64,000 bases of DNA, from NCBI RefSeq assembly GCF_003019035.1, contig NZ_CP027447.1. One strand, 5' to 3'. The notes under the pieces are model-generated. The model made no database searches. It was not told the DNA's origin and was given only the letters and a program-made list of their open reading frames with translations. The translations under genes were made by a program, and so were the position numbers. Shown in pieces: positions 11,360 through 40,603 of this stretch. The stretch comes from Escherichia coli. Its GTDB lineage: Bacteria; Pseudomonadota; Gammaproteobacteria; Enterobacterales; Enterobacteriaceae. Numbering within the stretch: the first letter of the stretch is position 1; every line of letters begins with the position of its first letter.

Positions 11360-11379
11360 TTTAAATAACAAAATCCTAA
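11360..11379 (-). promoter_or_regulatory. GAD box (GadE binding site) upstream of gadB
   Basis: Reverse complement reads TTAGGATTTTGTTATTTAAA, which is the GAD-box sequence as I recall it. Confidence 0.6.
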
Positions 11380-11611
11380 TGTTATTTATCGCGAGATATT
11401 ATGTGAATTATATTTTATCATTGAAAATCAATATATTACTGAATTCTTGGGTGGTGGCAAGGTGTTTTATGCTGTTATTTTTATGCACTTTCTACGCCTC
11501 CTGAATTATCACGTAAAAATCAGACCTTAAAATATCACTATTAGCACTCGGCTATTATTTTGAACGCATTTATAAAATTATTACATAAAAATGGCGAATA
11601 TTGCTAAAATC

Positions 11612-23440: not shown

Positions 23441-25720
23441 TTAATTTGATGGTTCTAATTCAACCGGAATACTTTTATAGCCAGGAATGCCACTTAATGG
23501 ATCGTGGTTATCAAGTGTTAGCATGTGATTCGATTCTGGAAAATAGGTCACCAGTGAGCGGTCAGCCATAGGGTAAATGACCACTTTTAATCTATCCATG
23601 CGGCGTGAGCTTCGCTTACCGTCTGGCGTAAGCGCAATAAGATTAACTCTTTCGCCGTTTTTTACACGGCAAATTTTAGCTTGTTTAGCACTCATAAAGA
23701 CCACATCTCGTTGACCGAATACCCCTCGATAGCGATCATCCATACCATAAATCGTCGTGTTGTACTGATCGTGACTGCGTACTGTCGCCATGACTAGCTT
23801 ACTGTTAAACGCTGAAGAGGGATCTTCTAACAGCCCTTTACTGGTAATGAAATTAGCCTTACCTGACGGCGTCATCCAGCGCCTTTCAGCAGCTGCATTT
23901 ATCAGGTGAAAACCACCGGGATGACGGATGCGCTGGTTATAGTCGGCGAACTCTGGCAGCACAGCTTCAATGTCATTGCGAATGCGATCATAATCTTCCA
24001 CCAGATACTCCCAGGCTACCACGCTCTGGGGTAGTGCTGCCTGCGCGATTCCCGCGACCACTGCACACTCTGATTTCAGCATTACACCGGCGGGTTTTAA
24101 CACACCACGCGAGGCATGAATCATCGACATTGAATCTTCAACGGTTACCGCCTGCGCACCGCTTTTTTGCATGTCAATCTCGCTACGTCCCAGAACCGGC
24201 AGAATATAGCTATGCCGTGCGGTCAGCAGATGAGAGCGGTTAAGCTTAGTGGCTACGTGTACCGCCAAATCTAATTGCGTTAACGGTACAGCGCTCGCTT
24301 CCCGATCTGGCATTGCCAGCGCAAAGTTGCCCCCCATGCAGATCAATGCTCGAGCTTGCCCCGTACATATTGCTTGCATGCTGGCAATTGCAGCATGTCC
24401 AGGTGCATGAGGTGGGGTGAAACCATAGCGCTCACCCAGGCGAGCCAGAAACTCTGCAGACGGTTTCTCGGTGATACCGACGGTTCGGTCGCCCTGTACA
24501 TTAGAGTGACCTCGTAGTGGGCAGATGCCCGCACCAGGCTTGCCAATGTTACCTTTCATCAACAGCAGATTGACCAGTTGCTGTACATTCTGGGTACCAT
24601 GTTCGTGCTGAGTGATCCCCATTCCGTAACAGATAATGGTGCGTTCGGCAGCGGCATATGCATCAGCCAGTTCGGCGATTTGAGTCTGACTTAGTCCAGA
24701 AATACGCTCGATATCTTTCCACTCGGAATTGAGAACGTCACGGCGTAGCTCGTCAAAGCCGACGGTATGCGTTTGAATAAATTCGTCATCCAGCAATGAG
24801 GGCCGACCTGCGGCGCTTGCAGCATCATCGCGCTCAATTAACAGGCGCATCATCCCCTTGAGCAACGCCATATCACCACCAATGCGCACGTTGTAGTAGG
24901 CACTGGCCAACTGAGTCTCAGAGTTCGTCAGCATTTCAAACGGGTTTTGCGGTGCGGTAAATCGCTCCAGGCCACGTTCCTGTAGAGGATTGATGGCGAT
25001 CATTTTCGCTCCCCGTTTCACTAAAGCGCGCAACGAAGTCAACATGCGAGGGTGGTTTGTACCAGGGTTATGCCCAATGCAAATGACTAAATCGCATTTC
25101 TCAAAGTCTTCCAGCAACACGGTCCCTTTACCTACACCGATACTCGCTGCCAAACCCACACTGGTCGGTTCATGGCACATGTTGGAGCAGTCGGGGAAGT
25201 TATTGCTCCCGTATTCACGGGCAAAAAGCTGATAAAGAAAGGCAGCTTCATTGGAAGTGCGGCCCGAAGTATAGAATTCAACCTGATTGGGATCACTATA
25301 GCTTTGAAGGCGTTCGCCAATTTCGTCGAAAGCTTGTTGCCAGCTTAATGGCTTGTAACAGTCGCTGACGGCATCATATTTCAAAGGCTGGGTGAGACGC
25401 CCCGCAGCCTCAAGCTCGTGATCTCCCCAGGTAAGTAATGATTGAACCGTATTCTCAGCAAAGAAAGAGGCATTTACCTGCTTATCCGTGACTTCCCAGG
25501 CGATTGCTTTTGCGCCGTTTTCACAAATGTCGAATGACGCACTGTGCTTAGGATCTGGCCATGCACAACCCGGACAGTCAAAGCCCTCTGGCTTATTCAT
25601 GTCAAACATGGCAATAACATCCTGGCGTATATCCATCTGCTTACGTACTGCATTCGCTACGGATTTAACAGCACCCCAACCACCGGCAGCCCCCTGGTAG
25701 GATTCAATTTTTTTCTTCAT
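23441..25720 (-). CDS. ydeP: Molybdopterin-family oxidoreductase (acid resistance)
   Basis: 759-aa ORF matching YdeP. Confidence 0.9.
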
Positions 25721-25962
25721 CTACTTATCCTGTGTGGAAATGAATTATTAGGATTTGTAATAGCGATGATGCACAGTATATACAAAGGGATTATCGTCAA
25801 TATGGATATATAAGAGTAGGGGACTACTCTCTTTCTATTTTAATCTATTATCGTTAAACAAAAGATTAAATACGATAAATTAAGCATCATCTCTCATAGT
25901 GTTTAAATTAACATATTTTTCAATATAAAAAATAAGACTCTGGCTTCAATTGTGCGCGGATT

Positions 25963-25979
25963 TTCTTACAGATGTAGGA
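25963..25979 (-). promoter_or_regulatory. Candidate EvgA box upstream of ydeP
   Basis: TTCTTACAGATGTAGGA, the same core as the safA site. Confidence 0.5.
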
Positions 25980-26052
25980 TAATAGCCTTCACAAAATAAT
26001 TATCCGCGCAATTTTCGTGAATGGAGCGCATAGACTAAGGTCAAAATCACAA

Positions 26053-26967
26053 TTATTCATAGATAAAAGTGACACCAATGACTGACTGGACGGTTCCGGC
26101 TGCAACCTTGTTTCCTGTTTGTCCATAGGTTGCGCTTAAACCCAGAGGTACTTTGCTTTTATTTACTGTCCCCAGGGAGACGTTTTCTCCCGTAGCCAGT
26201 ATTTTTCCATTACGCATCAGAGAGACACCCACTCCCGATGCTTTTGTTGCATCTGGTGCTGTGTTAGCAAACACTTGTCTGGCACTGTCAGTGGTAGCAC
26301 CCGAAAGATAAAATGAGAGCTTTTGTTCACTTGAGCAATATACGCCAAGGGGTATTTCTGCGCTTCCAGGAAAGTCAGGGAGATTCACGGTGACATTACG
26401 ACTATCAACGGTGCAGCCGCCTGTTGGCATAACAACACTGTTATTTGAAATAATATTCCACGTAAAATTACGCGGATTTCCGCTTCCTAACGTGGCAATT
26501 TTATACATATGAATACGGGCAATAACTTCCCCAGCTTTTATGACAACTCCACCGGCCGCACCGACTGGGGTAATATAGAGTTTTAACGGTAATGGCATCG
26601 GTGTCTTATCACCAATATCTAATACATTAGTATTTGTCGTCAACGGGAAGGGGTAGGTCACATTATTCCAGTACAGCGATCCTTTATATGACTGTAGGGA
26701 GCCTGCGAAAGCTGAGCCTTGTACCAGGTTTATATGATCAGTGTCGTACCAGCCGCCGTAATCATTCCAGCAACTTATATGCTGAGACAAGTCTACAACC
26801 AGATTCTGGCCCGGTTGTATTACAGGGTCGAGATTAACATAAACAGAGGTTGTACCTGCTCCAATACTTGACCCGCCATCGACATTACAACTGAAGGCAA
26901 AAACTTTGCCTGCCATTAATAGAAGATAAATACTGAACAGAACCTTTATACTGAATGTTTTACCCAT
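26053..26967 (-). CDS. ydeQ: F9 (Fml-type) fimbrial tip adhesin, FimH-like
   Basis: 304 aa, alignable along its length with FimH as I recall it (…VYVNL.PV…GQNLVVDLS……VTFIY). Confidence 0.85.
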
Positions 26968-27025
26968 GATATATCCTAAGGTTAAAAAATTGATTTAAAT
27001 AGAGGCAAAAAAAATCAAATTGATG

Positions 27026-27529
27026 TTATTGCCAGGTATAGATCACATTGATTAGCGACTCGATCGTTCCCTGGCTTGCGTTTCCATTCACCGTGATAGC
27101 TCTTGCCTTAAGTGGAAACTGTGCATTACGAGTGATCTCATCAACAATAACCGTTTTGCTATCGCCATTTTTTAACGTCGCATCCTGGTCATCCCTTAGC
27201 TCTATCTGAATATTTTCGGCAGTACCTTCATTTTTGTAATAACCCGTATTGTCAGTTGAACCTGTCACGATTGCCGTCACTGCACTTGTTTCAATCGGAC
27301 AATCGGTTAATGACAAAGTAATATTGTGCCAGCCAGATGCAGAACCAGGTTGTTGCAGATTGCGTGTATAAAGATCCCCGAGATTAACGTTAGCTTCTTT
27401 GGTTTGAATAGTGCATGGTTTAGCGACTACCCGACCATTAACAGTGATAGTGACATCGGCGGCCTGGAGAGTTGCTGTGAATAATGTGCAAAACGTAGCT
27501 AACAGGAACCTCTTGTGAAGTCTTTTCAT
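27026..27529 (-). CDS. ydeR: Fimbrial minor subunit (FimG-like)
   Basis: 167-aa ORF with signal peptide; pilin-like. Confidence 0.85.
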   Translation of the reverse strand: MKRLHKRFLLATFCTLFTATLQAADVTITVNGRVVAKPCTIQTKEANVNLGDLYTRNLQQPGSASGWHNITLSLTDCPIETSAVTAIVTGSTDNTGYYKNEGTAENIQIELRDDQDATLKNGDSKTVIVDEITRNAQFPLKARAITVNGNASQGTIESLINVIYTWQ

Positions 27530-27541
27530 ATCTGACTCTGA

Positions 27542-28072
27542 TTATTGAAATTCAAGGGTAAAGGTTGCCGAAGCGCTCACCAGTCCAGGATTGACGGACT
27601 TCTGAGTTGACTTCAAACGAGCGGAGTAAGGCAAAATATTGTTCTGTTCTGGTACCAATGGGATCCACTGCATCCCGGCATGAAGGTCATTCAATTTCAC
27701 CGGACGCATATTTCCGTCCAGTATTTCTATACCCAAACCGGAGGCCGTATTGCTTCCTTCATCCAGTTTCAACAGAGTATTATTTTCTGCATCCTCAATA
27801 CCGTTAAATGCAACCCGAACTCCCGTTGTCCCTTTGCTGCATTCACTTAATGTAATCTGAAAAGGGACGGCTGGACTTGTGCTACCGGTCGTTGGAAATT
27901 GTCTGGCACTGTTTTTTTGGAGATCTACGGTAAAATTAAGCGAATCCGATGAGACTGTGCAGCCATAATCGAGGACGCGCCCGCTAATTTTAATAACGCT
28001 ATCTGCAGATAAAGCAGAATAGGTGGTTAACCCCAGACATAAACCGAGGAAAATAATGTTATTGTATTTCAT
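27542..28072 (-). CDS. ydeS: Fimbrial minor subunit (FimF-like)
   Basis: 176-aa ORF with signal peptide; pilin-like. Confidence 0.85.
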   Translation of the reverse strand: MKYNNIIFLGLCLGLTTYSALSADSVIKISGRVLDYGCTVSSDSLNFTVDLQKNSARQFPTTGSTSPAVPFQITLSECSKGTTGVRVAFNGIEDAENNTLLKLDEGSNTASGLGIEILDGNMRPVKLNDLHAGMQWIPLVPEQNNILPYSARLKSTQKSVNPGLVSASATFTLEFQ

Positions 28073-28085
28073 AATCTATTGTTCC

Positions 28086-30737
28086 TTAGCGACAGATTGC
28101 TGTCTGCTGGTTCAGTAAGGTACCAGGAGAAACTTCAGGAAGCTTGTACTCGACAATACAGTTTGAGTTTTTATCTTTGCCCCATGAAACCTGTAATTTC
28201 CCTGACTGTGGAAGTCCAGTCAGATAAACCTGACCGTTTTCCGCGACAATGCTGCCATTTTTATTCTCTCCATGTGTGACAATTGCACCGAATGGAACGC
28301 TCTTATTACCGTACTTCAACGTCATTAATACTTTCCCGCCGATTTGTGCATTAAATGTTGCTCTGGCAATAGCACCGTGAGTTGGGATGACAGTGACAAC
28401 GGTTTCATCCAGTTCAACATTATCTGCAAGGGAATTCGCGTTAAGAGCGACACGATTTTCTCTATATTCTGTCGCAAATGGTAATATGGCATAGCCACGC
28501 CAGTCGGTATGAATTCCGGTCTGGTTCTCTATTTTGACATTATCAGCGCCAGGAGCCTTAACCAGAACCATTGTGTCGCCCAGCGGCTGTCCAAAGGTGA
28601 TGCCATCAGCATGAGCAATAATCCCACCACTCATTCCGTAATAAATCTGGCTGCTGTCACCACTCCGACTGTAACCGACATTCGTATTACCGTAAGCTCC
28701 ACGATAATTAAGAGAACTGTAACCACTGGTGCCAGACGATGTATTACCCCCTTGGGTGTTACCGACCTGAACGCTATAATTCAGGTTATTATCCGGCAGC
28801 AGAGTGCCATAAACCCCTGATAGGTTGGTCATGCCGCCTTTCAAATCGTTTGACATACTGTAACTGGCGTTTGAATTACGAAATGCCGACTGACTGTCTG
28901 TACGCATCCAATGACTGAAGGGAACATTAAGCGTAAAAGCAAGTAAATGATCCCGATCGTTTTGCCATATATTATTGGAATAGCTGTAATTCAGCGAAGT
29001 CGTAATATCACCAAACGGCACATTTAATCCAAATGATATTTGCTGGTCGCTGCGTGACGTGTTCCAGTAACTTTGGCGACTGGCACTGAAAAATGTCGTA
29101 CCGTAATGTCCAAGCTGCTGAGAGATGCTTATTTGTTCCTGACCACGCTTACTGTAAAACAGATTAAAATAATCAATAAATAGTGTCTGCTCATTGCTGT
29201 CTCCGGTAGGAGGCTTGACGGTGTAACCACTCATTCGACTGTATGCACTGTCGGATAAGTTATAAAAACCTTGCGTAGAATAGCGATATCCTGCGACCTG
29301 GATATTGGTTCCCGTCTGGTAGAAGGATTTGCTGTAGACGGATTTAACCGATTGCCCGCTGTGACGGGTGCCATCTGCAAGTGTCGTATTGGCCTGCGTG
29401 ATATCGAAAGAAAAGGCACCAAAAAGTCCTAAATCTTTACCAATACCAAGGTTGAAGGCCTGATATTCTTCTGCAATTTGTATTCCGCCATAAGGTGTCC
29501 AGTTTCCTTTCAGACCATGCATCAAGCTTGCTTGTACGAACTTGGGGGAGCTTTGCAGGTTATTTCCACTACGATATTCCCCCATGGCAAGCGCATAACG
29601 CGTATATCCAGCACGTTGGAGAACCGGAACAGACGAATAAGGAACATATAATGTCTGAATACTGCCGTCTGCCTCTTTTATAGTTACTTGCAGATCACCA
29701 CCATTGGCCGCAGAGTTGATATCATCAATAGTAAAAGGGCCGGGTGGAACAGTAGTCTGATAAACATCGTATCCGTTCTGTTTTACACTCACTTGTGCGG
29801 TGCCACGGGCAATACCATGAATCACCGGAGCGAAACCATGTTGGCTATCGGGCAACATCGCTTCTGTTGAATTTATTTTTAGGCCACGAAAGTTCACACT
29901 ATCAAAAATATCGCCATCGGTATAACTATCACCTACCGTTAAGCGTGAGCGTAAGGGAATAATGTCACGTTCAGCCGACGTATTGATATGCTGCCATTTA
30001 TTGCTGTCAGATGAATTGCTACTCCCACTGTTATAACTCCACGTTGAGTTATCGCGCAGTCGCCAACTACCAATGTTGATGCCACTCTGTAAATTCAAAT
30101 ATGCATAGTTGGATTTTCCAGCATTATGGTTACTACGATTATTAATAGAATTACCATTAAAACTATAGTTTAGAAGCCCAGCATTTATTCCTTCTTCCCA
30201 CAGATCAGGAGAAACATAGCCGCGAGCCATTCTGCCAACATATATTTGCGGAACGGAGAGTGACAGATGTTGCTGACCAACATCAAACTCAGATGATGCG
30301 TCAGCCAAACGATCCTGGAGTGGTGTGCATGCGCTGTTGTCCGGCACATGTTTTTCTGCCGAATGTTCCTTGTTGTCTAATAATGCTGATTTTTTTATGC
30401 CAAGACTGACAAGAAGGTCTGTACTCAGGCATGGGATGAGATCTGCGTTATTATCATCTGCAATAAAAGTAATATCCCGACTAGTCATAAATTCGTCGTT
30501 CAAATAAATGTCGACCCGATATGTACCAGGTGGTGCCTCGCGCCCCTTAGTAAAGGCGGATAAATCGACAGATTCAGCAAGATCATTGCTTAAAAACCGT
30601 GGATTAAAATAATACTCTGCGTCAACGGGAAATACCGCAGTTGCTAAGCCAAGGGCAATGGTAAGCCGTGCAAAGCGAGGCAGTAGTAACACCTGATGCA
30701 TACGATATGCCTTAAATGCGGCACGAAAGGCTGTCAT
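28086..30737 (-). CDS. ydeT: Fimbrial usher, full length (FimD-like); ydeT is a fragment in K-12
   Basis: 883 aa, collinear with FimD (…YFNPRFL… to …CR); exact start uncertain (M1 or M13). Confidence 0.85.
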   Translation of the reverse strand: MTAFRAAFKAYRMHQVLLLPRFARLTIALGLATAVFPVDAEYYFNPRFLSNDLAESVDLSAFTKGREAPPGTYRVDIYLNDEFMTSRDITFIADDNNADLIPCLSTDLLVSLGIKKSALLDNKEHSAEKHVPDNSACTPLQDRLADASSEFDVGQQHLSLSVPQIYVGRMARGYVSPDLWEEGINAGLLNYSFNGNSINNRSNHNAGKSNYAYLNLQSGINIGSWRLRDNSTWSYNSGSSNSSDSNKWQHINTSAERDIIPLRSRLTVGDSYTDGDIFDSVNFRGLKINSTEAMLPDSQHGFAPVIHGIARGTAQVSVKQNGYDVYQTTVPPGPFTIDDINSAANGGDLQVTIKEADGSIQTLYVPYSSVPVLQRAGYTRYALAMGEYRSGNNLQSSPKFVQASLMHGLKGNWTPYGGIQIAEEYQAFNLGIGKDLGLFGAFSFDITQANTTLADGTRHSGQSVKSVYSKSFYQTGTNIQVAGYRYSTQGFYNLSDSAYSRMSGYTVKPPTGDSNEQTLFIDYFNLFYSKRGQEQISISQQLGHYGTTFFSASRQSYWNTSRSDQQISFGLNVPFGDITTSLNYSYSNNIWQNDRDHLLAFTLNVPFSHWMRTDSQSAFRNSNASYSMSNDLKGGMTNLSGVYGTLLPDNNLNYSVQVGNTQGGNTSSGTSGYSSLNYRGAYGNTNVGYSRSGDSSQIYYGMSGGIIAHADGITFGQPLGDTMVLVKAPGADNVKIENQTGIHTDWRGYAILPFATEYRENRVALNANSLADNVELDETVVTVIPTHGAIARATFNAQIGGKVLMTLKYGNKSVPFGAIVTHGENKNGSIVAENGQVYLTGLPQSGKLQVSWGKDKNSNCIVEYKLPEVSPGTLLNQQTAICR

Positions 30738-30778
30738 TATTAATTCCGATTGAGTTTATTATTAATTAGGTCACTGGC

Positions 30779-31498
30779 TTACTGCATGGTTGCCTTAATA
30801 CGCGGAGTTAATGCACCGTAATCATTGATCGTCTGAAAACTGATATCCCCGGTTGCAACATGCGGGATATCCACCGATACTTCACCTTTTGGCGGCACCA
30901 TGGTGTTTGGGAGATTGCTATTTCCTGCTTTCATATTTGTTACGGTAATGAAGTAGGGCGTTGGATTAATAAGAGTGAGTTTGCTACCGCTGCGACGAAA
31001 CCGAAGCATTGCTGGCGCTTCTTCAGGTGCCATTGCCAGGTTCGTGGGGCGATAAAACATTTTTATGCGGCTAATAATTGCCAGCTGTAATGAATTCTCA
31101 TTCTTCTGGTCTTTTTCCATAGCAGGAATAGCTTTAACATTAACCCAGAACAGGCTTTCACGGTCGCCTGGTAACTGATGATTAGTGGCGTTGATTATCC
31201 GCAGCGTATTCTCTTTTTTACCTTGCATGGAAAAAAGCGGTGGGGTAATGACAAACTGGGTGTCTTTTTGGTCACCTGCATTTTCTATCCATGACTGAAT
31301 GAGATAGACACTGGCAGGATCATTATTCGTGACAGGCAATAAAACCTGTTTCTGGTTTGCCGGATAAATTACCCGCGTCGCACCAAGTGCGACAGCTGCG
31401 TTGGCAATGGTGCTATGGCAAGCAAAGAGCAATAAAAGTAACACTGTCGCCATAAAGGAAACAGAGTAGGGGGTACGCGTAGTTTGCATCTGATGCAT
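30779..31498 (-). CDS. Periplasmic fimbrial chaperone (FimC-like)
   Basis: 239-aa ORF with signal peptide and PapD-like features; absent from K-12 at this locus. Confidence 0.85.
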   Translation of the reverse strand: MHQMQTTRTPYSVSFMATVLLLLLFACHSTIANAAVALGATRVIYPANQKQVLLPVTNNDPASVYLIQSWIENAGDQKDTQFVITPPLFSMQGKKENTLRIINATNHQLPGDRESLFWVNVKAIPAMEKDQKNENSLQLAIISRIKMFYRPTNLAMAPEEAPAMLRFRRSGSKLTLINPTPYFITVTNMKAGNSNLPNTMVPPKGEVSVDIPHVATGDISFQTINDYGALTPRIKATMQ

Positions 31499-31851
31499 TC
31501 TCCATGTGTTAAGAGGATAAGCGGGAAAACCGTTACATCAGACAATCAGTAAATGTTGCTAATACATTGGCGACTCGCCGGGTTTCCAGACTTAATGCGT
31601 TTGTAATAAATGTTGGTTCTCTTTTAATAGGAAAACCTTGCTACAAAGTAAATATTTTAAATAACAGTAAGTTTAACTACTGTTGTTTATTGATCGTTTA
31701 GATATTATGTGATTTTTTCATACCGCTCCAAAACACAAACTATTCCTCATTAATAATGAGATGAACATTGGTGAATTGCTCGGGTGTGCGTAGCCATGCC
31801 ACACACACCCTGTTTCAATTTCAGATGACGTATAGCCACCTTAAGATTGAA

Positions 31852-32415
31852 TTATAGATATTGAACTTTGAAGGTCGCATCTGCGTTTGCAGTACCAGCT
31901 ACTGACTGCCCGAGAGCAATATATCGAGCCTGGAACGGCAATATATTCGTGCCATCAATCAAGTCAGTTTTAGCGCTAAAAGTGGCACCATCAAGTATTA
32001 ATACCTCCCCCGTACGGTCCAAAATTTGAATACCAACATTTTGGGCAGAGCCTGCCGCTGAACTCTGCAGCGCTAACGTATCGTCATTACTGGTGACAGT
32101 AGTACCCAGGAATGCAACAGCTGCATTACTGGAAACATTGGTATCACAATCATTCAACTTGATATTGAAGCCAACGGCAGAGCTGAGGTCACCCGCTTTA
32201 GCCAGGCGAGAAGAACGGACCTGACCCAGCTCAACCGTTTGGTTCATTGATTCTGAATCAATCGCACAAGCGGCATTTACCACTTCACCTTTAAAATGAA
32301 TAACACCGCCATTAACAGTGGTCGTTACTGATTCATCACCCTCGGCTGCGCTTACCGCAGCAGACGACATCGCCAACACAGAAACGACAATCATACCGAC
32401 ATGTTTGAGTTTCAT
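31852..32415 (-). CDS. F9 major fimbrial subunit (FimA-like)
   Basis: Start taken at [23 protein letters not shown] (signal peptide); C-terminus …[10 protein letters not shown] is pilin-like. Confidence 0.8.
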
Positions 32416-32848
32416 AATTCTCCAAAATTTATATTTAAGTAGCTGAATAAAGAAAGTTAACAATCAAGTCATTCTGTTATTGCTTATAAAACAAGAATCA
32501 TTCTTGATGGGATATTGCCCTGAGAATATAGTTTCCGGGGTTATTACATTTCACGAAGAACGATAATATCTTTAAATTACAAGGACACCTAATCACAACA
32601 AGTTTATTGCAGCACTTGTTGTAGAGAGTATTTGCAAAGACATTTTATGTCGCTAAATAACATGACAATTTCATTATGCATGTTATTTATAAACCGTGAC
32701 TAAACAGAATATTATTGCGAACAAGGGAAGTGTCAGGAAAGGTCAAGAGCGACCAATGGCTTATATGGCTATAAATCATTAGCTATAGTTAATGTTTGCC
32801 TGGTGTAACTAACACGGAATTGCTCTAAACAGATAAGTGCAGGGTTTA

Positions 32849-33103
32849 TTAAAGCTGACCGACAGACTTTCTTAACCTGGTAATATCTCTCTTAGGTGAC
32901 TCTCCAAACATCCGCGAATATTCCCGACAGAAATGGGATAAGCTTTCGTAACCGACAACATAGGCTGCAGTGGTGACATCGTAATGTTCATTCAGCATCA
33001 GTCGCCTGACTTCATTGAGGCGTAGCCATTTCTGATACCGGAGTGGACTCATTCCCGCAAGCTGTCTGAAGTGTTGATGGAAAGAGGGGGTGTTCATTTG
33101 CAC
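32849..33103 (-). pseudogene. yneL: AraC-family regulator remnant (HTH domain only)
   Basis: 84-aa ORF containing only an AraC-type HTH; no intact N-terminal domain upstream. Confidence 0.65.
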
Positions 33104-33383
33104 GCGGTTTGCCAGCCTGACTCTTCAACGCAGGGAAGATGCGGCAAACGGCAAACCTGCATACCAGCCAGCCTATATCCGGTATGCACAGGCCAATCAT
33201 GAAAGAGGAGAGGCTTTATGTTCTGGAACCCTGAAGTAATAACGACGACCGAAAAATCGCTTCGCATCACTCAAATTACATTTAACATAATATACATTAT
33301 GCGCACCAACATAAACCAAGGGAGAATCCAGTCGTTGGCGGTCATGATTGTCCTGCTCATTAACAACGGCCAAACCCCATATC

Positions 33384-34706
33384 TTACTTAATACCGTATT
33401 CTCGGCTTAACCGACGGTGCAACCTTAACACATTGGTTTCAACTGCCGTCACCACGTTCTCCGGAAAATCTGTCGGTAATGAAGTCTTCACATGATCCAG
33501 TGCTGCCGGAATCATTCTGGCAAAGTCACTCAGGATTTCATGCATCTGCACTTGCGGAAATTTCAGCACCTTTGCTGTCGCCAGAAAATGTCGCGGATAA
33601 ATTTTATCGATTGCCGTTTTTTTGCCTTTGGATGCGTTAAGCCCCATTGCCAGTTTGAGATCGCTGATGTGTATTCCTGCGCCACCCAATACCGGAAATG
33701 CTGAAATGATGTCGTAAAATGGCGTGAGTCGATAACTGCCGCCAGCCTGAATAAATACGGAGAAGTTTTTTGCATGGCCATCCGTTGCGCCAATCAACCA
33801 CTGGAAGACCTGGAATTTCATAAAATCATAACGATCTTTCAGCGCCTCGCTGGACCCCATCAAAAAAGCCATGATCCGCGCGATGCCTGGGCCTCCATCT
33901 GATTCATATTTCACCGATGAAGGTAAACCAAATGTCTGACACATATCCTCCTGTGGCAAGCGAAGTAAAACCGTTCGCTCAGTATTCCAACGCCTGTCAA
34001 AACGTTCGACCGCTAACGCGCGCACATTTCCCGCTTTAATGATTTCTGCGTCCGGCACATTCAACCCAAGTTCTTTCGCCAGCAGCAGACAGTAATACTC
34101 ATTATCAACGCTTTGGCTGAGATCGAGCGTCGCATTGGGCTGCCTGATTTCGCCAATCGGTAATTTAATGATGTGCGTCGTCGGCGTTATTCCTTTCGGA
34201 ATGCACCAGTCATTGCCTATTCTGAGCAGTGCTGTCTTCTCCTGTGCGCCAGCAACCGAGATGCGAAAGTCATTTTCTTCTCTAATCATGCCTAGCGGGA
34301 TATCTGCTTTATAAGCCGTTAATACTTCTTCAAGTCTGGCTTCAGTAAGCTTTTCCCATGCCATTATCGGACGCGTTACGGTTTCGTCTTCGGGTATTAA
34401 CGTCACAGCACCAACGCTGTCTCGCCCTATTTCTGACAATAAATCAAACGGTTGTCTGGATTTAGCATGATAACGTTTAACGATCCGGTCACGTACAATC
34501 GGGCTATCGGGTAGCAGGTTATCGAAGAAGTTAAATACAGCATCAGAGGTGATATTCCCCCTCTGCAATGGCAGCGAAAGTGATAACGGTCTGGCATAAC
34601 GGTTGGCTAACCACTCCGGTGCATACTTAAAGGTGTGCGCGCCGTTGGCTAACTTCGTTAACTCGCCTACCCGCTGGTTGTTCATCCAGGTGACAAGTTT
34701 AGGCAT
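33384..34706 (-). CDS. hipA: HipA serine/threonine kinase toxin
   Basis: 440 aa from MPKLVTWMNNQRVGEL; start overlaps the hipB stop by 1 nt. Confidence 0.95.
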   Translation of the reverse strand: MPKLVTWMNNQRVGELTKLANGAHTFKYAPEWLANRYARPLSLSLPLQRGNITSDAVFNFFDNLLPDSPIVRDRIVKRYHAKSRQPFDLLSEIGRDSVGAVTLIPEDETVTRPIMAWEKLTEARLEEVLTAYKADIPLGMIREENDFRISVAGAQEKTALLRIGNDWCIPKGITPTTHIIKLPIGEIRQPNATLDLSQSVDNEYYCLLLAKELGLNVPDAEIIKAGNVRALAVERFDRRWNTERTVLLRLPQEDMCQTFGLPSSVKYESDGGPGIARIMAFLMGSSEALKDRYDFMKFQVFQWLIGATDGHAKNFSVFIQAGGSYRLTPFYDIISAFPVLGGAGIHISDLKLAMGLNASKGKKTAIDKIYPRHFLATAKVLKFPQVQMHEILSDFARMIPAALDHVKTSLPTDFPENVVTAVETNVLRLHRRLSREYGIK

Positions 34707-34972
34707 TACCACTCCAGATCTTGCTGTTCTGTTGATTCTGGCGAGGCATTTTTCGTGTCGCATAGCGTCATTGAGAGTTCAAGCGACTGTAAAATCTTAA
34801 AAAATGTCGTGAGCGTGGTATTGTCAGGGTTGTTTTCGAAATTGGAAATTGTCGCCTGCTTAATACCGATTTTTTTCGCCAGCTCGCTCTGCGTCCAGCC
34901 ATTTTGCTGACGAACCAGTTTCATTGCATTCGCTAATTGCGTTGGGTTATAGATCTTCTGAAAGCTCATCAT
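34706..34972 (-). CDS. hipB: HipB antitoxin (Cro/C1-type HTH)
   Basis: 88 aa from MMSFQKIY. Confidence 0.93.
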   Translation of the reverse strand: MMSFQKIYNPTQLANAMKLVRQQNGWTQSELAKKIGIKQATISNFENNPDNTTLTTFFKILQSLELSMTLCDTKNASPESTEQQDLEW

Positions 34973-34983
34973 GTCATACGTCC

Positions 34984-35097
34984 ACAGCATATTTATCCGC
35001 TCAAGGGGATATTATCAGTTTTATCCTTTAGTGGGGATAAAGTCAATCAGGAAACACATCTTATCCGCTCTACGGGATAAACACTGTGATATCCGCG
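34984..35097 (-). promoter_or_regulatory. hipBA promoter with four HipB operators (TATCC-N8-GGATA)
   Basis: Perfect TATCC-N8-GGATA at 34984-35001, 35012-35029, 35052-35069 and 35080-35097. Confidence 0.9.
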
Positions 35098-35182
35098 ATC
35101 GCGGATAAAAAGGAGGATTTAAAAGTCGTTTGAAGTCGGCAATATTAAGCCGCATGCATCTTCGACATGCGGCTTATACGGT

Positions 35183-38100
35183 TTACCAGCTATATTTCAC
35201 ACCCAGCATGCCCTGAGTATCGCTATAGCCTTTATCACCTAGTTGCACACCGACATTCCCCCACAGGCTAAGGTTGTTATTTACTTTCGCCTCAACCCCG
35301 GTACGTACTTCACCGAGATTACGCGCACCATCACGGCTTACGTTTTGACCATTCATCTTCACGGCGTAGACTTTGCTGTTGTTGATCCAGTTCGCTTCAA
35401 TGTAAGGCTGGAACTCACGCTGTTTACCATTGTCACGCTGGTGATGACTGTTCTGGTAGGTTTTCACCCCAAGTCGTGTTTGCACGTTTCCGTCTCCTTC
35501 CGTTTCAATGCGTGTTCCGTCTTTCCGGGTATGGTCAGAATCTTTCACACCCATCCAGGTGATTTGTACCTGTGGCTGGACGTACCAGGTATTCAGCGTC
35601 CCTTCGCTGCCGCTAAATGTTCCCGCTTCAAAGGTATACCCACCCTCAACAGAGGCCGTCACACCGCGAGAATCATAGTCGTCAGCAGAACGGTTATCGG
35701 AACTGACGCTGTTATCAAACCAGTTATACAGCGCCCAGCTGTCAACATAAGCGCCGGTCTTATTCGCATCGTTCTGATACCAGGTCGCGTACAGTCCTGC
35801 GCTGTAACCGCTGATGCGCCCATCCGATTTATAACCCACATGATTACTCTGAGTATTACTGTGCTGATTGGCATAGCCTGCCATCACGCCGAGATGCCAG
35901 CGATCCTGCGCGTTGCTACTCCACTGCGCCAAATCGCCGCCTAGCTGCAATACATAGCGGTTAGCCTGAGTATTTAGCTGACCATCACCGGTCCTGAAAC
36001 GTTCGTGCCCTCCGACATGACGCATCCATATACTGGTTGCCGAATCCTGAACTCGCAGTGAATCTGTATACTGCGGCTCACCCAGACGGTCGTGTAAGCG
36101 ATGGCTAAACAGCGAGTTGGCTGCGGCAATGTTGCTGATATAGCTTCCGGCCTCCGGGCGATAAACTGATGGGCCTTCCGGATCCACAACAGGGGGATTA
36201 TTGATGGGATCGGGTGTATCCGCTGGCGTTACGCCGTCCCATTTACTGGTCAGATACCAGTTTTTCTCGTCATTCCCCTTCCCTTTAGCCAGCGTGTAGA
36301 CGTAAGCCCCAGCTTCGACAGTTCCGGTGGTCAGCGCGAAGTTACCTGCAGAATTACCGCCAACCTCAATGAGTTCAATACCGTTGACCGTTTGTGCACC
36401 GACGCCGCCAATGTTATTAACCCGAACGCGGGTATTGCCCTGCGTATCACCTTTTACGTTCATTTTATCCGTGGGGGAATTATCGCTACCCAGCGTCGCG
36501 TTGAACGTCATCAGGCCATTGTTTCCGGTATAGTTACCGTTAACGGTCAGTACATTCCCCGGTTTCCCCCCTTCGCTGTTCATTTGAACCGTGCCACCAT
36601 TCTCCAGGTTACCGCCGACAGTGGTTTTAGCGACACGCAGTGTCCCCCCAGGCATAACGTTCACATCACCTGCAGTGGTGACATTTCCCGACATCACACC
36701 GCTGTTATGGATATTAATGTGCTGACTTGCCATATTAATGGCAGAGTCGGAACCGAAAGCAATTTCACCACCCACGATATCCGTCGTACCCTGGTACGCC
36801 GCGGAATCGTTGTTAAGAGTCAGGATCCCGGACCCCAGTTTTGTCACACCGCCGCTACCGGTGATACTGTGCGTCATCGCCCAGCTACGCTCAGTGGAGA
36901 TGGTGAGCAGGCCATTATTGATAACGGAAGCATCACCCAGGTTTTTCTGCTCGTTGACGCTGAGCGCGCTGCCTGTATCAATGTTGAATTGCCCCACAAA
37001 GCGGCTATTATCGCCATCCAGCTCTACGTCTGTCCTGGCGGTTGCGCTCACGATACCCTTCCCGCTTATGCTATTACGCAGTTCGCCGGTCACGTTTTTT
37101 AGCGTTAACAGACCGTCATTGGCAATATTTCCTCTGCCTAACCCCTGCGTATTATCGAGGCTGACTTCCGCATTTGGGCTAACGCTGGTTAACGCATTGT
37201 AGCGTGCATTAAGCCCCTCGATAGCCAGCGTTCCCCCTGTAACATTCAGGTTTCCGCCACCTGTCAGTTCACCCTGACTGATCCCACCTTTATTCACCGT
37301 CAGCGACCCTTCTTTGAACAAAACAGTCGAACCCATCTGCCCGGTGAATGTCTCTACCGTCTGCGTCGATCCATTAAGATCGACGATGGCCGCGTTGCTG
37401 ATGTTCAGTTCCCGGGTGTTGCCCAGCGCGCCATCCGCATCGGTACGTAATGTCCCCATCTGAACGTAGGTTGCCCCCTGATAGTCGTTCTGACCGTTGG
37501 AAAGCGAAACCTGTCGCACCGTATTGATTGCCAGATCCCCTTCACCACCGATTTTTGCCGACATATCGGCCGTTGCGCCATAGGCTCCGCCATGTTCGGC
37601 TAATGTCAGCTTTTGCCCACCATGGATGTTCAGCGCTTTCAGCCCATAGTTAACGTACAAACCATCACCTGGTGCGGTCGTGAGGCGGAATCCATAATCA
37701 CCCTCGGCGACCACCGTTCCGTTTTGCGCAATGTGTAACGTTTTGTCCGCTTCCACCTCGTCGCCCTGTAAATCACGTAACGTTAATGAGCCACCCGACC
37801 CAATAACCGTTTGCGCCTTCACCAGTTGAACGCCGACATGGTTATCATCGTGTTCCAGCAAATTGAGCGTCGTCAGAGGGTTATTCGCCATGGGATCATT
37901 CCACGGTTTAGGCACGTCGATAAGCACGTCGCCCGTCCCGTTTACCTGATAGTTACGGCCTTTCCAGGTGTAGTCACCCGCGCCGACAGCCAGCGTATCG
38001 ACGCTGATATATCCCTCCGCAAGCGTCGCAGCAGGTATATCCGTATCGAAAGTGAGCGTACCGCCATTCATGGCTAGTCCACCAATGGATTGCTCTCCCA

Positions 38101-40603
38101 CGTTTACCGATGTGGTATTTTCACTGTCAGACTGAAGCATCGCGTGAGTAAGCGCAGCGGTGTTGTCGCGTTCCAGTGTGAAGGTACTGTCTTTCAGTTG
38201 GACAACACCGGCGAATTCAGTTCCTGTTGCATGGGTAAAGCCAAACATTTTGTCGGAGGATGACAGCTGCACTCGCATCAAGCCATCGCCTTTGAGCGCA
38301 TTGGTCAGCGTGTAATCTCCTGCGCTGTTCGTTGATGCGAGAATGTCGAGCGTACCGGGGCTTGCAATGGTGACTTCACTCGAACCCATGCCCGTTACCC
38401 CATCTGCCGTATGTGACGCAATGGTCAGGAGGCCGTCATTGACCAGCGTTTTACCGCTATAAGTATTCCCTGCATTGAACACCGTATGGCCTGCATCATG
38501 TATCACTTTTCCGTCTTTATCGTCACCCGTAATCAGCATATCGACCTGGTAGCCGGCATCACTGTTATTGGTATGATTAAAGACAAAAACACCTTCGCCA
38601 GAACCAAACTCTACTTTCGTCGCGTTGGCGATAAACCCGGCATCTGCCGCCGCCTCACCGTGAGCAGCACCAATGTTTAGCGTTCCTACAGCAGGTTCAA
38701 AAAGACCTAAGTAAACTTCGCCACCTTCGACATTCAGCGTGCCGTTATTCGTCAGGGTTAACGTACCCGTACCAGACGTCCCTACATTCATATTGAATGT
38801 TTCAAGAAGAGAGTTCTGCCCATCCACCCGCACGTCGCCCTTACTTTTGTCATTCAGAGCTATCTGTGTATCACGCGCTTTAACTATACCTCCGGTGGTA
38901 ATATTCAGTTCACCCGTACCTAATACACCGACCTGTAGCAATTGGGCGTTAGTAGATGACGTTTTTAAATTCCAGAGACTATCCGTTGAAATATTAACTA
39001 TCCCCTTACCGGAGGCATTTCCTCCGATAAATCCATAGCCCGTTGAATTAAGGGTGGCACCATTACTGACATTTACGATGCCGCTACCAAAATTACCGAC
39101 ATTGATACCTACAGTATCGAACGATGATGTCGCATCCATCAGGTTCAGTGTGCCGATACCGCTTGCTTTATCGCCCAAAAAAGTAATATTTTGCGATACG
39201 AACTTACCGCCATCGCTGATATTGAGGTTTCCGACGCCCGCAACACCAATGGTGGTGTAGACATTCTTATTGACCTCCCATATCCCCCCCGTGGTGATGC
39301 TAACCTTCCCGACGCCGGTTTCTCCATAACCGAGTGAACTTCCTCCGTTGCTGACAACAAGCCCCTCATTACTGATATTCATTTCGCCGTGGCCGTCATA
39401 ACCAAGATTAGTTCCGAGATTAGTGATAACGGAGTTCTTATCCTTAACAGTAATGTTGCCTGTGCCTGTTTCTTTCATCCCCGCAGTGATAATTCCCGAA
39501 TCTACTTTGCCTTCACTAGAGACATTAAGTTCACCGTCGCCAGCATCACCGATATAGATATAGCGGAAAGCTTCGCCCGTTCCGAGGAAATTCCAATGCC
39601 CTTTATCGGTCACGTTGACGACACCGTGGGAACCGTCCTGAACGCCCACCAATGAATATTCTTTGTTATTAATCAGTCCATTATTGGAAATATTGACTTT
39701 GCCATTACCGAAATATCCATTATAGAGTCTGCGTACCGTGATGACAGAGTCTTGATCCTGCACATTCAGGGTTCCGATACCGGTGGCATTGCCTCCGATA
39801 ATCGTATTTTCAGCCGTAATTAGCCCACCCTCGCGAATAGTCGCTTCCCCAGTTCCTTGATTACCAATTTGAAATTCAATTGAGGAATCGTTATTTTTTA
39901 TTAGCCACTCACCGCCCTTTTCAACGACAACCTTACCATTACTGTTCGCTTGATATCCTACAGTGGCGACTATTGAACTCGTGACGTAACCCTTATCCGT
40001 AATATTTAATGAGCCCGTACCGTAACTCCCTATTTCGAATAATTCGGTCGTCAGAACCGAGTCCTCTCCCTCAACATTAACCGTCCCGACGCCTCCTGTC
40101 GAAGAACCTATCCTTAAATATCCTCCGTCAACGTGACCCTTCTGTTTAATATTCAGCGTCCCCGTTCCGGATTGACCCACATTTAAAGGCCTTGCATTAT
40201 TTCCGCTATCATACAATCGCCAGGTCCCACCCAAAACATTAACGGTGCCCTCCGAGTCCTCATTAGCGCCAATGACGCTGGTAGTAATAGTGGTTAAGGA
40301 AGCATTACCGCCAGCCAAAATATTAAGCACTCCAGTGCCATACCAGCCAACCAGGTAGGCATCATAAGCAACATCAGTATCAATATTGGTAATCTGACCA
40401 TTATCAACTTCCAGACTCGCACCAGACGCTGAACCGCTTAGTGCCAGCAAAACACCCAGCGTCAATCTACTGAGTTTCGTTGTCAGTCCAGAGGATTTAC
40501 GCAAATTAACCGTCGATGTTTTACCTACCCTGCGAGTTAATTCAGAGCAGGCCTGAAATACCTGTAGAGTGCAATTCCATATCACGCGATAGATTCTATT
40601 CAT
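35183..40603 (-). CDS. yneO: AIDA-type autotransporter adhesin, intact 1806 aa (yneO/ydeK pseudogene locus in K-12)
   Basis: Extended signal peptide MNRIYRVIWN…; repetitive glycine-rich passenger; C-terminal beta-domain ending …GVKYSW. Confidence 0.85.
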   Translation of the reverse strand: MNRIYRVIWNCTLQVFQACSELTRRVGKTSTVNLRKSSGLTTKLSRLTLGVLLALSGSASGASLEVDNGQITNIDTDVAYDAYLVGWYGTGVLNILAGGNASLTTITTSVIGANEDSEGTVNVLGGTWRLYDSGNNARPLNVGQSGTGTLNIKQKGHVDGGYLRIGSSTGGVGTVNVEGEDSVLTTELFEIGSYGTGSLNITDKGYVTSSIVATVGYQANSNGKVVVEKGGEWLIKNNDSSIEFQIGNQGTGEATIREGGLITAENTIIGGNATGIGTLNVQDQDSVITVRRLYNGYFGNGKVNISNNGLINNKEYSLVGVQDGSHGVVNVTDKGHWNFLGTGEAFRYIYIGDAGDGELNVSSEGKVDSGIITAGMKETGTGNITVKDKNSVITNLGTNLGYDGHGEMNISNEGLVVSNGGSSLGYGETGVGKVSITTGGIWEVNKNVYTTIGVAGVGNLNISDGGKFVSQNITFLGDKASGIGTLNLMDATSSFDTVGINVGNFGSGIVNVSNGATLNSTGYGFIGGNASGKGIVNISTDSLWNLKTSSTNAQLLQVGVLGTGELNITTGGIVKARDTQIALNDKSKGDVRVDGQNSLLETFNMNVGTSGTGTLTLTNNGTLNVEGGEVYLGLFEPAVGTLNIGAAHGEAAADAGFIANATKVEFGSGEGVFVFNHTNNSDAGYQVDMLITGDDKDGKVIHDAGHTVFNAGNTYSGKTLVNDGLLTIASHTADGVTGMGSSEVTIASPGTLDILASTNSAGDYTLTNALKGDGLMRVQLSSSDKMFGFTHATGTEFAGVVQLKDSTFTLERDNTAALTHAMLQSDSENTTSVNVGEQSIGGLAMNGGTLTFDTDIPAATLAEGYISVDTLAVGAGDYTWKGRNYQVNGTGDVLIDVPKPWNDPMANNPLTTLNLLEHDDNHVGVQLVKAQTVIGSGGSLTLRDLQGDEVEADKTLHIAQNGTVVAEGDYGFRLTTAPGDGLYVNYGLKALNIHGGQKLTLAEHGGAYGATADMSAKIGGEGDLAINTVRQVSLSNGQNDYQGATYVQMGTLRTDADGALGNTRELNISNAAIVDLNGSTQTVETFTGQMGSTVLFKEGSLTVNKGGISQGELTGGGNLNVTGGTLAIEGLNARYNALTSVSPNAEVSLDNTQGLGRGNIANDGLLTLKNVTGELRNSISGKGIVSATARTDVELDGDNSRFVGQFNIDTGSALSVNEQKNLGDASVINNGLLTISTERSWAMTHSITGSGGVTKLGSGILTLNNDSAAYQGTTDIVGGEIAFGSDSAINMASQHINIHNSGVMSGNVTTAGDVNVMPGGTLRVAKTTVGGNLENGGTVQMNSEGGKPGNVLTVNGNYTGNNGLMTFNATLGSDNSPTDKMNVKGDTQGNTRVRVNNIGGVGAQTVNGIELIEVGGNSAGNFALTTGTVEAGAYVYTLAKGKGNDEKNWYLTSKWDGVTPADTPDPINNPPVVDPEGPSVYRPEAGSYISNIAAANSLFSHRLHDRLGEPQYTDSLRVQDSATSIWMRHVGGHERFRTGDGQLNTQANRYVLQLGGDLAQWSSNAQDRWHLGVMAGYANQHSNTQSNHVGYKSDGRISGYSAGLYATWYQNDANKTGAYVDSWALYNWFDNSVSSDNRSADDYDSRGVTASVEGGYTFEAGTFSGSEGTLNTWYVQPQVQITWMGVKDSDHTRKDGTRIETEGDGNVQTRLGVKTYQNSHHQRDNGKQREFQPYIEANWINNSKVYAVKMNGQNVSRDGARNLGEVRTGVEAKVNNNLSLWGNVGVQLGDKGYSDTQGMLGVKYSW

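Follow-up and report, generated by a model that had tools for sequence, protein, structure and literature searches.

An intact F9/Fml pilus operon of Escherichia coli at its normal site between ydeP and hipBA, with a stable hairpin after the major pilin gene

We analyzed a 64,000-nucleotide (nt) stretch of an E. coli genome (contig NZ_CP027447.1), referred to here as the window, whose coordinates are used for all features. Our main finding, held with very high confidence, is that positions 26053-32702 of the minus strand form an intact F9/Fml chaperone-usher pilus operon, located at its normal site between ydeP and hipBA. A first-pass annotation of this DNA had proposed a complete operon of that type, and uninterrupted open reading frames (ORFs), Pfam domains, gene order, flanks and orthology all agree with it; no observation spoke against this identification. 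The F9/Fml operon is already known in detail and common in E. coli, and the identification is correct but ordinary. Points of mechanistic interest are a hairpin that follows the pilin gene fmlA, a palindrome in the promoter, and the termination of a pilus that has no fimI gene.

Six uninterrupted genes in F9 order

The ORF list and a Pfam scan place six consecutive ORFs, none of them interrupted, at 26053-32415. All six pilus genes lie on the minus strand, in the order major pilin, chaperone, usher, FimF-like pilin, FimG-like pilin and two-domain adhesin:

31852-32415, minus strand: fmlA, F9 major pilin (c1936/Z2200-type), 187 amino acids (aa); Pfam Fimbrial, E 6e-31; RefSeq WP_001296758.1
30779-31489, minus strand: fmlB, periplasmic chaperone, 236 aa with the start set by PGAP; PapD_N and PapD_C; 98% identical to the reference proteins named below
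28086-30737, minus strand: fmlC, outer-membrane usher, 883 aa; PapC_N, Usher (E 2e-199) and PapC_C
27542-28072, minus strand: ydeS, FimF-like adaptor pilin, 176 aa; Pfam match; NCBIfam FimF 239 bits (cut-off 200)
27026-27529, minus strand: ydeR, FimG-like adaptor pilin, 167 aa; Pfam match; NCBIfam FimG 255 bits (cut-off 220)
26053-26967, minus strand: ydeQ, that is FmlH (alias FmlD), tip adhesin, 304 aa, with signal peptide, lectin domain and pilin domain

Downstream of the operon lies ydeP, and upstream are found a yneL fragment, hipA, hipB and then a gene for a 1,806-aa autotransporter (ydeP and hipA were recognized by their Pfam domains). The published description of the f9 operon (PMC3966885) gives the same gene order, the same flanks (ydeP and hipBA) and a 5' region that varies; because the locus matches it in all three respects, we identify it as F9/Fml.

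Comparison with other strains leads to the same conclusion. A 7.66-kb stretch is 100% identical in DNA to E. coli SCU-301, where the RefSeq gene set is identical as well. As references we used the CFT073-clone strain 'clone D i14' and O157:H7 TX 265-1, whose six proteins have the same lengths as those encoded here and share 97.6-100% aa identity with them: FmlA is 100% identical to the O157:H7 protein and 98.4% to the CFT073-clone protein, while identity to both references is 99% for YdeS and 98-99% for YdeR. The usher, earlier described as full-length at 883 aa, does have its three domains (PapC_N, Usher and PapC_C); alignment of usher and chaperone, each 98% identical to and as long as its CFT073-clone and O157:H7 counterparts, uncovered no frameshift and no stop.

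The start of fmlA is assigned to the ATG at 32415, because the promoter elements and the G of the transcription start site (TSS) then occupy their published positions. This ATG is preceded by GGAG, agrees with the RefSeq annotation and with the published 251-nt leader, and displaces the TTG at 32463 given in the ORF list and the earlier note. For the chaperone, the ORF contains a further ATG at 31498, from which the protein would have 239 aa.

The locus is not a type 1 operon

The tip adhesin FmlH combines a FimH_man-bind domain (Pfam E 6e-78) with a C-terminal pilin domain. Its residues 25-184 are identical, at 160 of 160 positions, to the crystallized lectin domain (PDB 6AOW, 5LNE and others), and the galactoside-pocket residues defined by Kalas et al. 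(PMC5866590) are all kept, namely F1, Y46, D53, K132, N140 and R142.

Some of this evidence would also be expected of the type 1 (fim) operon or of a fim duplicate. Indeed, PGAP calls the pilin 'fimA', the pilin, YdeS and YdeR exceed the NCBIfam cut-offs for FimA, FimF and FimG, and the adhesin has the FimH_man-bind fold. However, there is no fimI gene, nor are there fimB or fimE, the upstream neighbours being the yneL remnant and hipA; no convincing fimS-like inverted repeats flank the promoter, where only weak long-range ones occur; the chaperone scores 258 bits against a FimC cut-off of 327 and the usher 987 bits against an equivalog cut-off of 995, both below; the lectin domain is identical to that of galactoside-binding FmlH, not to that of mannose-binding FimH; and the location is ydeP-hipBA. 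Gene content, cut-offs, lectin and location thus rule out a fim identity, whose chances we put at practically nil.

The full PGAP label of the F9 major pilin is 'fimA: type 1 fimbrial major subunit FimA', and it is assigned because the F9 pilin exceeds the NCBIfam FimA equivalog cut-off (174 versus 140 bits). In some genomes ydeS and ydeR are likewise labelled fimF and fimG. Naming F9 genes as fim is a systematic misnaming in RefSeq, and the 'fimA' label is misleading.

Promoter, leader and expression

In CFT073, 5'-RACE (rapid amplification of the 5' cDNA end) placed the f9 TSS at a G lying 251 nt upstream of the ATG of the pilin gene, with a -10 box CATAAT and a -35 box TAGTCG at 18-bp spacing (PMC3966885). 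A promoter scan of the window returned TAGTCA-18-CATAAT, and the following elements were assigned:

32697-32702, minus strand: -35 hexamer TAGTCA of the f9 promoter (TAGTCG in CFT073)
32673-32678, minus strand: -10 hexamer CATAAT, found by the promoter scan and invariant across four aligned alleles
32666, minus strand: G, putative TSS assigned from the CFT073 5'-RACE by homology, lying 251 nt upstream of the fmlA ATG
32416-32665, minus strand: fmlA 5' leader, 251 nt counted from the +1 G; GC 30.7%

Judged from the sequence, the promoter mapped in CFT073 is conserved here, with one -35 base changed. The upstream DNA had been described as AT-rich over about 385 bp: its composition is as stated (GC 32.8%), while its length from the fmlA ATG at 32415 to the yneL stop is 433 bp. 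The AT-richness of promoter and leader (GC 31-33%) would be consistent with repression by H-NS. In CFT073, the fragment bound by H-NS in gel shifts includes the AT-rich fmlA leader, and F9 is repressed by H-NS at 37°C and expressed at 20°C, being undetectable at 37°C in the wild type (PMC3966885); for CFT073 and O157 together, expression has been reported at 18-28°C (PMC3966885, PMC7766294). The checks suggested in the first-pass annotation, namely alignment to CFT073/UTI89 and K-12, silencing by H-NS, expression at low temperature and binding of glycans by the lectin domain, are all matters of published record (PMC3966885, PMC7766294, PMC5866590).

Two points tell against extending these data directly to the present copy. 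The TSS, H-NS binding and expression were measured in CFT073 and O157, that is, in strains other than this one; and the -35 box here is TAGTCA instead of TAGTCG, with a T at -1 of the TSS (32667), where almost all E. coli have C. An exact match to the 44-nt promoter core occurs in 18 of 4,877 records, and 4,854 of the 4,877 match it with at most two mismatches. It is conceivable that the operon is intact yet cryptic in this strain, owing to permanent H-NS silencing or to an impaired promoter, and confers no phenotype. The rare base at -1 and the lack of detectable F9 at 37°C in wild-type CFT073 (PMC3966885) would fit such a state, but purifying selection is evident in all six ORFs (97.6-100% aa identity across phylogroups), the core promoter is otherwise identical to that of expressed alleles, and F9 is made at 18-28°C in both CFT073 and O157 (PMC3966885, PMC7766294). 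We consider crypticity distinctly unlikely, and favour an operon that would be repressed at 37°C and expressed in the cold.

For F9, 'temperature-dependent translational control' has also been reported (PMC7766294). No RNA thermometer was seen in the 251-nt leader, the fold of which is not significant (z -1.2) and leaves the Shine-Dalgarno region unstructured; this control is therefore unexplained by any obvious structure.

A stable hairpin in the pilin-chaperone spacer

Between the major pilin and chaperone genes lies a long spacer that contains a hairpin:

31490-31851, minus strand: non-coding fmlA-fmlB spacer, 362 nt, GC 36.5%, at the position occupied by fimI in fim operons
31782-31810, minus strand: GC-rich RNA hairpin, 29 nt, beginning 41 nt past the fmlA stop, with a 13-bp stem and an AUG loop

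The first-pass annotation gave the gap as 353 bp, which holds if it is measured to the ATG at 31498; to the annotated ATG at 31489 it is 362 bp. It also placed an imperfect stem-loop near 31800-31830. The structure is real and overlaps that position, but it is nearly perfect: the fold GGGUGUGUGUGGC-AUG-GCUACGCACACCC (31810-31782) has 13 pairs, including two G.U, with a dG of -23.8 kcal/mol (z -6.1), and none of 200 shuffles was as stable. A 31-nt query that covers the 29-nt hairpin has an identical match in 3,486 of 3,590 genomes, with one copy per genome, and in O145:H28, the one common variant inspected, the change turns a U.G pair into U-A. When seven alleles from different lineages are aligned, no part of the spacer stays unchanged over a greater length than the one that contains the hairpin.

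Taken in its entirety, the spacer is polymorphic: only 409 of 3,656 genomes have it at 99% identity or more. Outside the hairpin, identity is typically about 95-96%, versus about 97% for the whole locus, so that it evolves slightly faster than coding DNA. It contains no ORF longer than 44 aa and no Rfam match (the only hit in 25000-35500 was OxyS at E 0.5, attributable to chance), no promoter-like site on either strand at a loose scan threshold, and no terminator-like site. Its six-frame translations have no pilin or other relevant match in Pfam at E values up to 10, and a tblastn search with 127 pilins of related loci stayed at chance level: its lowest per-query E was 0.019, too high to count once 127 queries are allowed for. 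Distant blastn searches in 5,426 E. coli genomes revealed no paralogous copy of the spacer, and of the 30 RefSeq records listed, 29 annotate no feature under it. A weaker, AU-rich hairpin just downstream of the main one is deleted in O104:H4.

In the pap, fan/K99 and daa clusters, differential mRNA stability or partial termination operates after the major-subunit gene. A stem-loop at this place, leading to an excess of pilin over the assembly proteins, is a recognized design of fimbrial clusters (PMC3373541). By analogy, the F9 hairpin could plausibly serve as an attenuator or mRNA stabilizer, and together with the roughly 290 nt of AT-rich RNA that follow it would most likely raise the ratio of pilin to machinery. 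We propose, with moderate confidence, that the hairpin may protect the 3' end of an fmlA-only mRNA, and that the 290 nt after it may make the distal message prone to Rho- or RNase-dependent loss.

Several observations count against such a function. The invariance of the hairpin across the seven alleles is only modestly significant, as the same degree of invariance is seen in 17 of 334 windows of 29 columns. No two-sided covariation supports the stem, and a scan of GTDB found no F9 orthologue beyond E. coli that could supply it. Moreover, there is no U-tract 3' of the stem, where GAGCAAUUCACC is found instead, and a terminator scan makes no call. Because the U-tract is missing, simple intrinsic termination is unlikely, and the hairpin was rejected as a canonical rho-independent terminator, of which it has the stem-loop only.

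The absence of a U-tract also bears on a scheme with two transcription units, in which the hairpin would end a monocistronic fmlA transcript and a separate promoter in the spacer would drive fmlB to fmlH. The length and AT-richness of the spacer and the strength of the hairpin agree with this scheme, and there is room for a weak or non-sigma-70 promoter. It is nonetheless very unlikely: no promoter-like site was found on either strand of 31490-31851, the hairpin lacks a U-tract, and all f9 genes shift in the same direction in a pst mutant of avian pathogenic E. coli (APEC) (PMC2648988).

Another possibility is that the spacer is a decayed, functionless fimI-like remnant, in which the hairpin has been kept by chance or hitch-hiking. 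In fim operons of Kluyvera and Citrobacter, whose chaperones are 61-62% identical, a gene for a 182-184-aa pilin sits exactly at the spacer position, and the relatively fast evolution of the spacer beyond the hairpin would also suit decay. On the other hand, no leftover similarity to pilins emerged from Pfam or from the tblastn with 127 pilins, the hairpin query is identical in 97% of the 3,590 genomes despite the polymorphic spacer, and the hairpin sits inside the longest invariant run of the seven-allele alignment. We regard decay as unlikely, and favour a hairpin that would adjust the output of fmlA relative to the distal genes.

The nearest relatives of F9 outside E. coli have a FimI-type gene between the pilin and chaperone genes; F9 is devoid of any FimI-type subunit gene. 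FimI is thought to be necessary for the biogenesis of type 1 pili, and this role raises the question of how the fimI-less F9 rod is terminated and anchored.

A promoter palindrome shared in part with gadB

The core promoter contains a second symmetrical element, parts of which recur elsewhere in the window:

32654-32689: 11-nt perfect inverted repeat, TAAATAACATG-N14-CATGTTATTTA, bracketing the -10 hexamer and the TSS, and a site of the 9-mer TAAATAACA/TGTTATTTA
31658-31689: site of the same 9-mer, in the fmlA-fmlB spacer
11360-11388: site of the same 9-mer
35275-35283: site of the same 9-mer

The palindrome has one match in the sequence and none in 100 shuffles, and its arms are invariant across four alleles and nearly so species-wide. 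It looks like an operator, as for a dimeric protein, and is retained as a candidate only. The 9-mer occurs in six copies in the window, versus 0.9 expected. At 31658-31689 one copy forms part of a degenerate version of the promoter palindrome; this spacer copy is not invariant, O157 carrying a substitution. Two further copies stand upstream of gadB, arranged as TAAATAACA-N9-TGTTATTTA, with the canonical GAD box TTAGGATTTTGTTATTTAAA as its right part; of this gadB box, the shared 9-mer makes up the 3' half.

Control by GadE through the 20-bp GAD box TTAGGAttTTgTTATTTAAa was rejected, as the F9 sites share only the half TGTTATTTA and lack the TTAGGA half, which is part of the GadE site (PMC4918353). 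Those GadEWX ChIP-exo supplements that could be searched contain no ydeT or yneL entry. In the APEC pst mutant gadE, gadW and gadX are up and f9 genes down, a correlation only (PMC2648988). That an additional dimeric DNA-binding protein, besides H-NS, might act on the core promoter, and that promoter and fimI-less spacer, with its conserved hairpin, might form a dedicated control module tying F9 to the neighbouring acid-stress regulon, is a long shot on this evidence. A dedicated operator at the f9 promoter is accordingly put forward as a lead of low probability.

The yneL remnant and the 5' flank

One neighbour of the operon, whose membership in it is not implied, deserves mention:

32849-33115, minus strand: yneL pseudogene, about 88 C-terminal codons, AraC family, HTH_18

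The first-pass annotation was right to see a yneL remnant next to the operon, and suggested from it that a local regulator had been lost. The fragment aligns to the last 85 or so positions of AraC-family models of 280-330 aa, and lacks the N-terminal sensing and dimerization part of a full-length AraC/XylS regulator. In all the E. coli records that were inspected, two of which carry the label 'transcriptional regulator', RefSeq describes yneL as 'missing N-terminus', and in a search of 5.8 billion proteins no intact form appeared among the 120 homologues listed, all of which are fragments of at most 154 aa. In the CFT073-clone genome yneL is absent, unrelated gene remnants being found instead. 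Because yneL is truncated in all records inspected and absent from a genome of the CFT073 lineage, in which F9 is expressed, the loss of a regulator is unsupported. Wurpel et al. (PMC3966885) state that these upstream regulators have no known link to f9, and a study from Holden's group (PMC7766294) describes the O157 allele reporter as minimally expressed and the cluster as having no canonical cis regulator. In one genome the yneL remnant adjoins oxidoreductase genes, which hints at an original role unrelated to F9.

The yneL-hipA spacer (32829-33383) exists as deeply divergent allelic classes, with 80-90% identity in 2,761 records versus at least 95% in about 1,300, and in some genomes the region is replaced by oxidoreductase genes or by remnants of short-chain dehydrogenase/reductase (SDR), LysR and esterase genes. 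The 5' flank of the operon is a recombination-prone variable region. Further out, hipA and hipB (33384-34990) are intact and overlap, while in an O157:H7 record hipA is truncated at its N-terminus and hipB is absent; the longest hipA ORF has 459 aa, with a start 19 codons upstream of the annotated 440-aa start. An intact gene for a 1,806-aa autotransporter of the ECSE_1600 family (AIDA-type) follows at 35183-40603; in the K-12 and O157:H7 records inspected, frameshifting has made it a pseudogene.

At the other end, just past the ydeQ stop, 25952-26009 contains an 8-bp GC-rich inverted repeat, GCGCGGAU ... AUCCGCGC, with an AT-rich loop of about 40 nt and no T-run. It may mark the 3' end of the operon or be part of the control of the ydeP promoter.

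Distribution and the K-12 deletion

Of 5,426 complete E. coli genomes, 3,561, or about two thirds, carry at least 80% of the F9 locus, and 5,425 carry some part of it; the former count is in line with a 2014 survey, in which f9 was intact in 60% of strains (PMC3966885). The 7.66-kb locus at 99% identity or more is found in just two records, and the promoter core is rare, so either the lineage of the strain has been little sampled or its allele is a mosaic.

A search with FmlB in one genome per GTDB species detected no F9 orthologue outside E. coli, which fits the published description of f9 as confined to E. coli and Shigella. The next-best matches, at 69% identity or less, belong to fim-type operons of Raoultella, Kluyvera, Citrobacter and others. 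The sole 98% match beyond E. coli labels is on a 25-kb contig, JARKOR010000214.1, in the metagenome-assembled genome that represents 'Candidatus Nanosynbacter sp.' in GTDB, and is almost certainly contamination of the bin by E. coli. The usher on this contig is broken into ORFs of 298 and 579 aa.

K-12 had been said to carry only remnants of the operon, and its alignment makes their origin precise. It runs to position 29312 of the window and resumes at 32594, revealing a single clean deletion of 3,281 bp (29313-32593) that takes usher codons 1-475 together with the chaperone and pilin genes and the greater part of the leader. K-12 ydeT is the C-terminal 408 codons of the usher gene fmlC, and the f9 promoter with the first 72 nt of the leader is kept, fused to this remnant at about codon 476. 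The ydeTSRQ remnant may thus still be transcribed from the f9 promoter.

Proposed working of the system and relevance

By homology to the strains studied, transcription would start at a sigma-70 promoter 251 nt upstream of fmlA, and H-NS bound to the AT-rich promoter and leader would silence it at 37°C, with relief at about 20-28°C. After transcription of fmlA, the hairpin may protect the 3' end of an fmlA-only mRNA, or part of transcription or mRNA decay may stop before fmlB, or both. According to the established chaperone-usher pathway, FmlB would catch the subunits in the periplasm and FmlC would polymerize them by donor-strand exchange into an FmlA rod, the tip of which would consist of YdeS (FimF-like), YdeR (FimG-like) and the lectin FmlH. 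FmlH binds terminal Gal(beta1-3)GalNAc/GlcNAc glycans, as shown for an identical lectin domain.

F9/Fml pili matter in chronic urinary-tract infection, for which FmlH is a target of vaccines and glycomimetic drugs, in low-temperature biofilm, and in attachment of enterohaemorrhagic E. coli to plants and bovine epithelium. This relevance is already established for alleles essentially identical to the present one. The practical value of our analysis is one of annotation: an intact operon, an unchanged drug-target lectin domain, a pilin start at 32415, and a 'fimA' label that misleads.

Comparison with known systems

The closest relatives are the F9/Fml (Yde) operons of CFT073 (c1931-c1936), UTI89 (fml) and O157:H7 (Z2200-Z2206 / ECs2113-), which have the same locus, order and flanks. 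Compared with these, the proteins are 98-100% identical, the FmlH lectin is identical, and the promoter and 251-nt leader are kept. Differences from CFT073 are allelic only (-35 TAGTCA here versus TAGTCG, and the rare T at -1). The upstream region is of the yneL-remnant type, like those of O157 and K-12, whereas that of the CFT073-clone genome is of the SDR/LysR/esterase-remnant type. With the K-12 ydeQRST/yneL locus, about 97-98% DNA identity extends over ydeQ, ydeR, ydeS and the 3' 1.2 kb of the usher gene, in addition to the retained promoter and leader.

With type 1 fimbriae (fimAICDFGH), F9 has in common the gamma-1 chaperone-usher design and the order in which the assembly and tip genes follow one another, and its adhesin has the FimH fold (E 1e-81 against the full-length protein). 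It differs in having a 362-nt spacer in place of fimI, no recombinases and no invertible promoter, and its lectin binds galactosides, not mannose (PMC5866590). Finally, like the stem-loops of the clusters described in PMC3373541, the strong F9 hairpin sits immediately 3' of the major pilin gene, ahead of those for biogenesis; unlike a rho-independent terminator as described there, it has no U-tract, and about 290 nt of AT-rich, untranslated RNA come after it.

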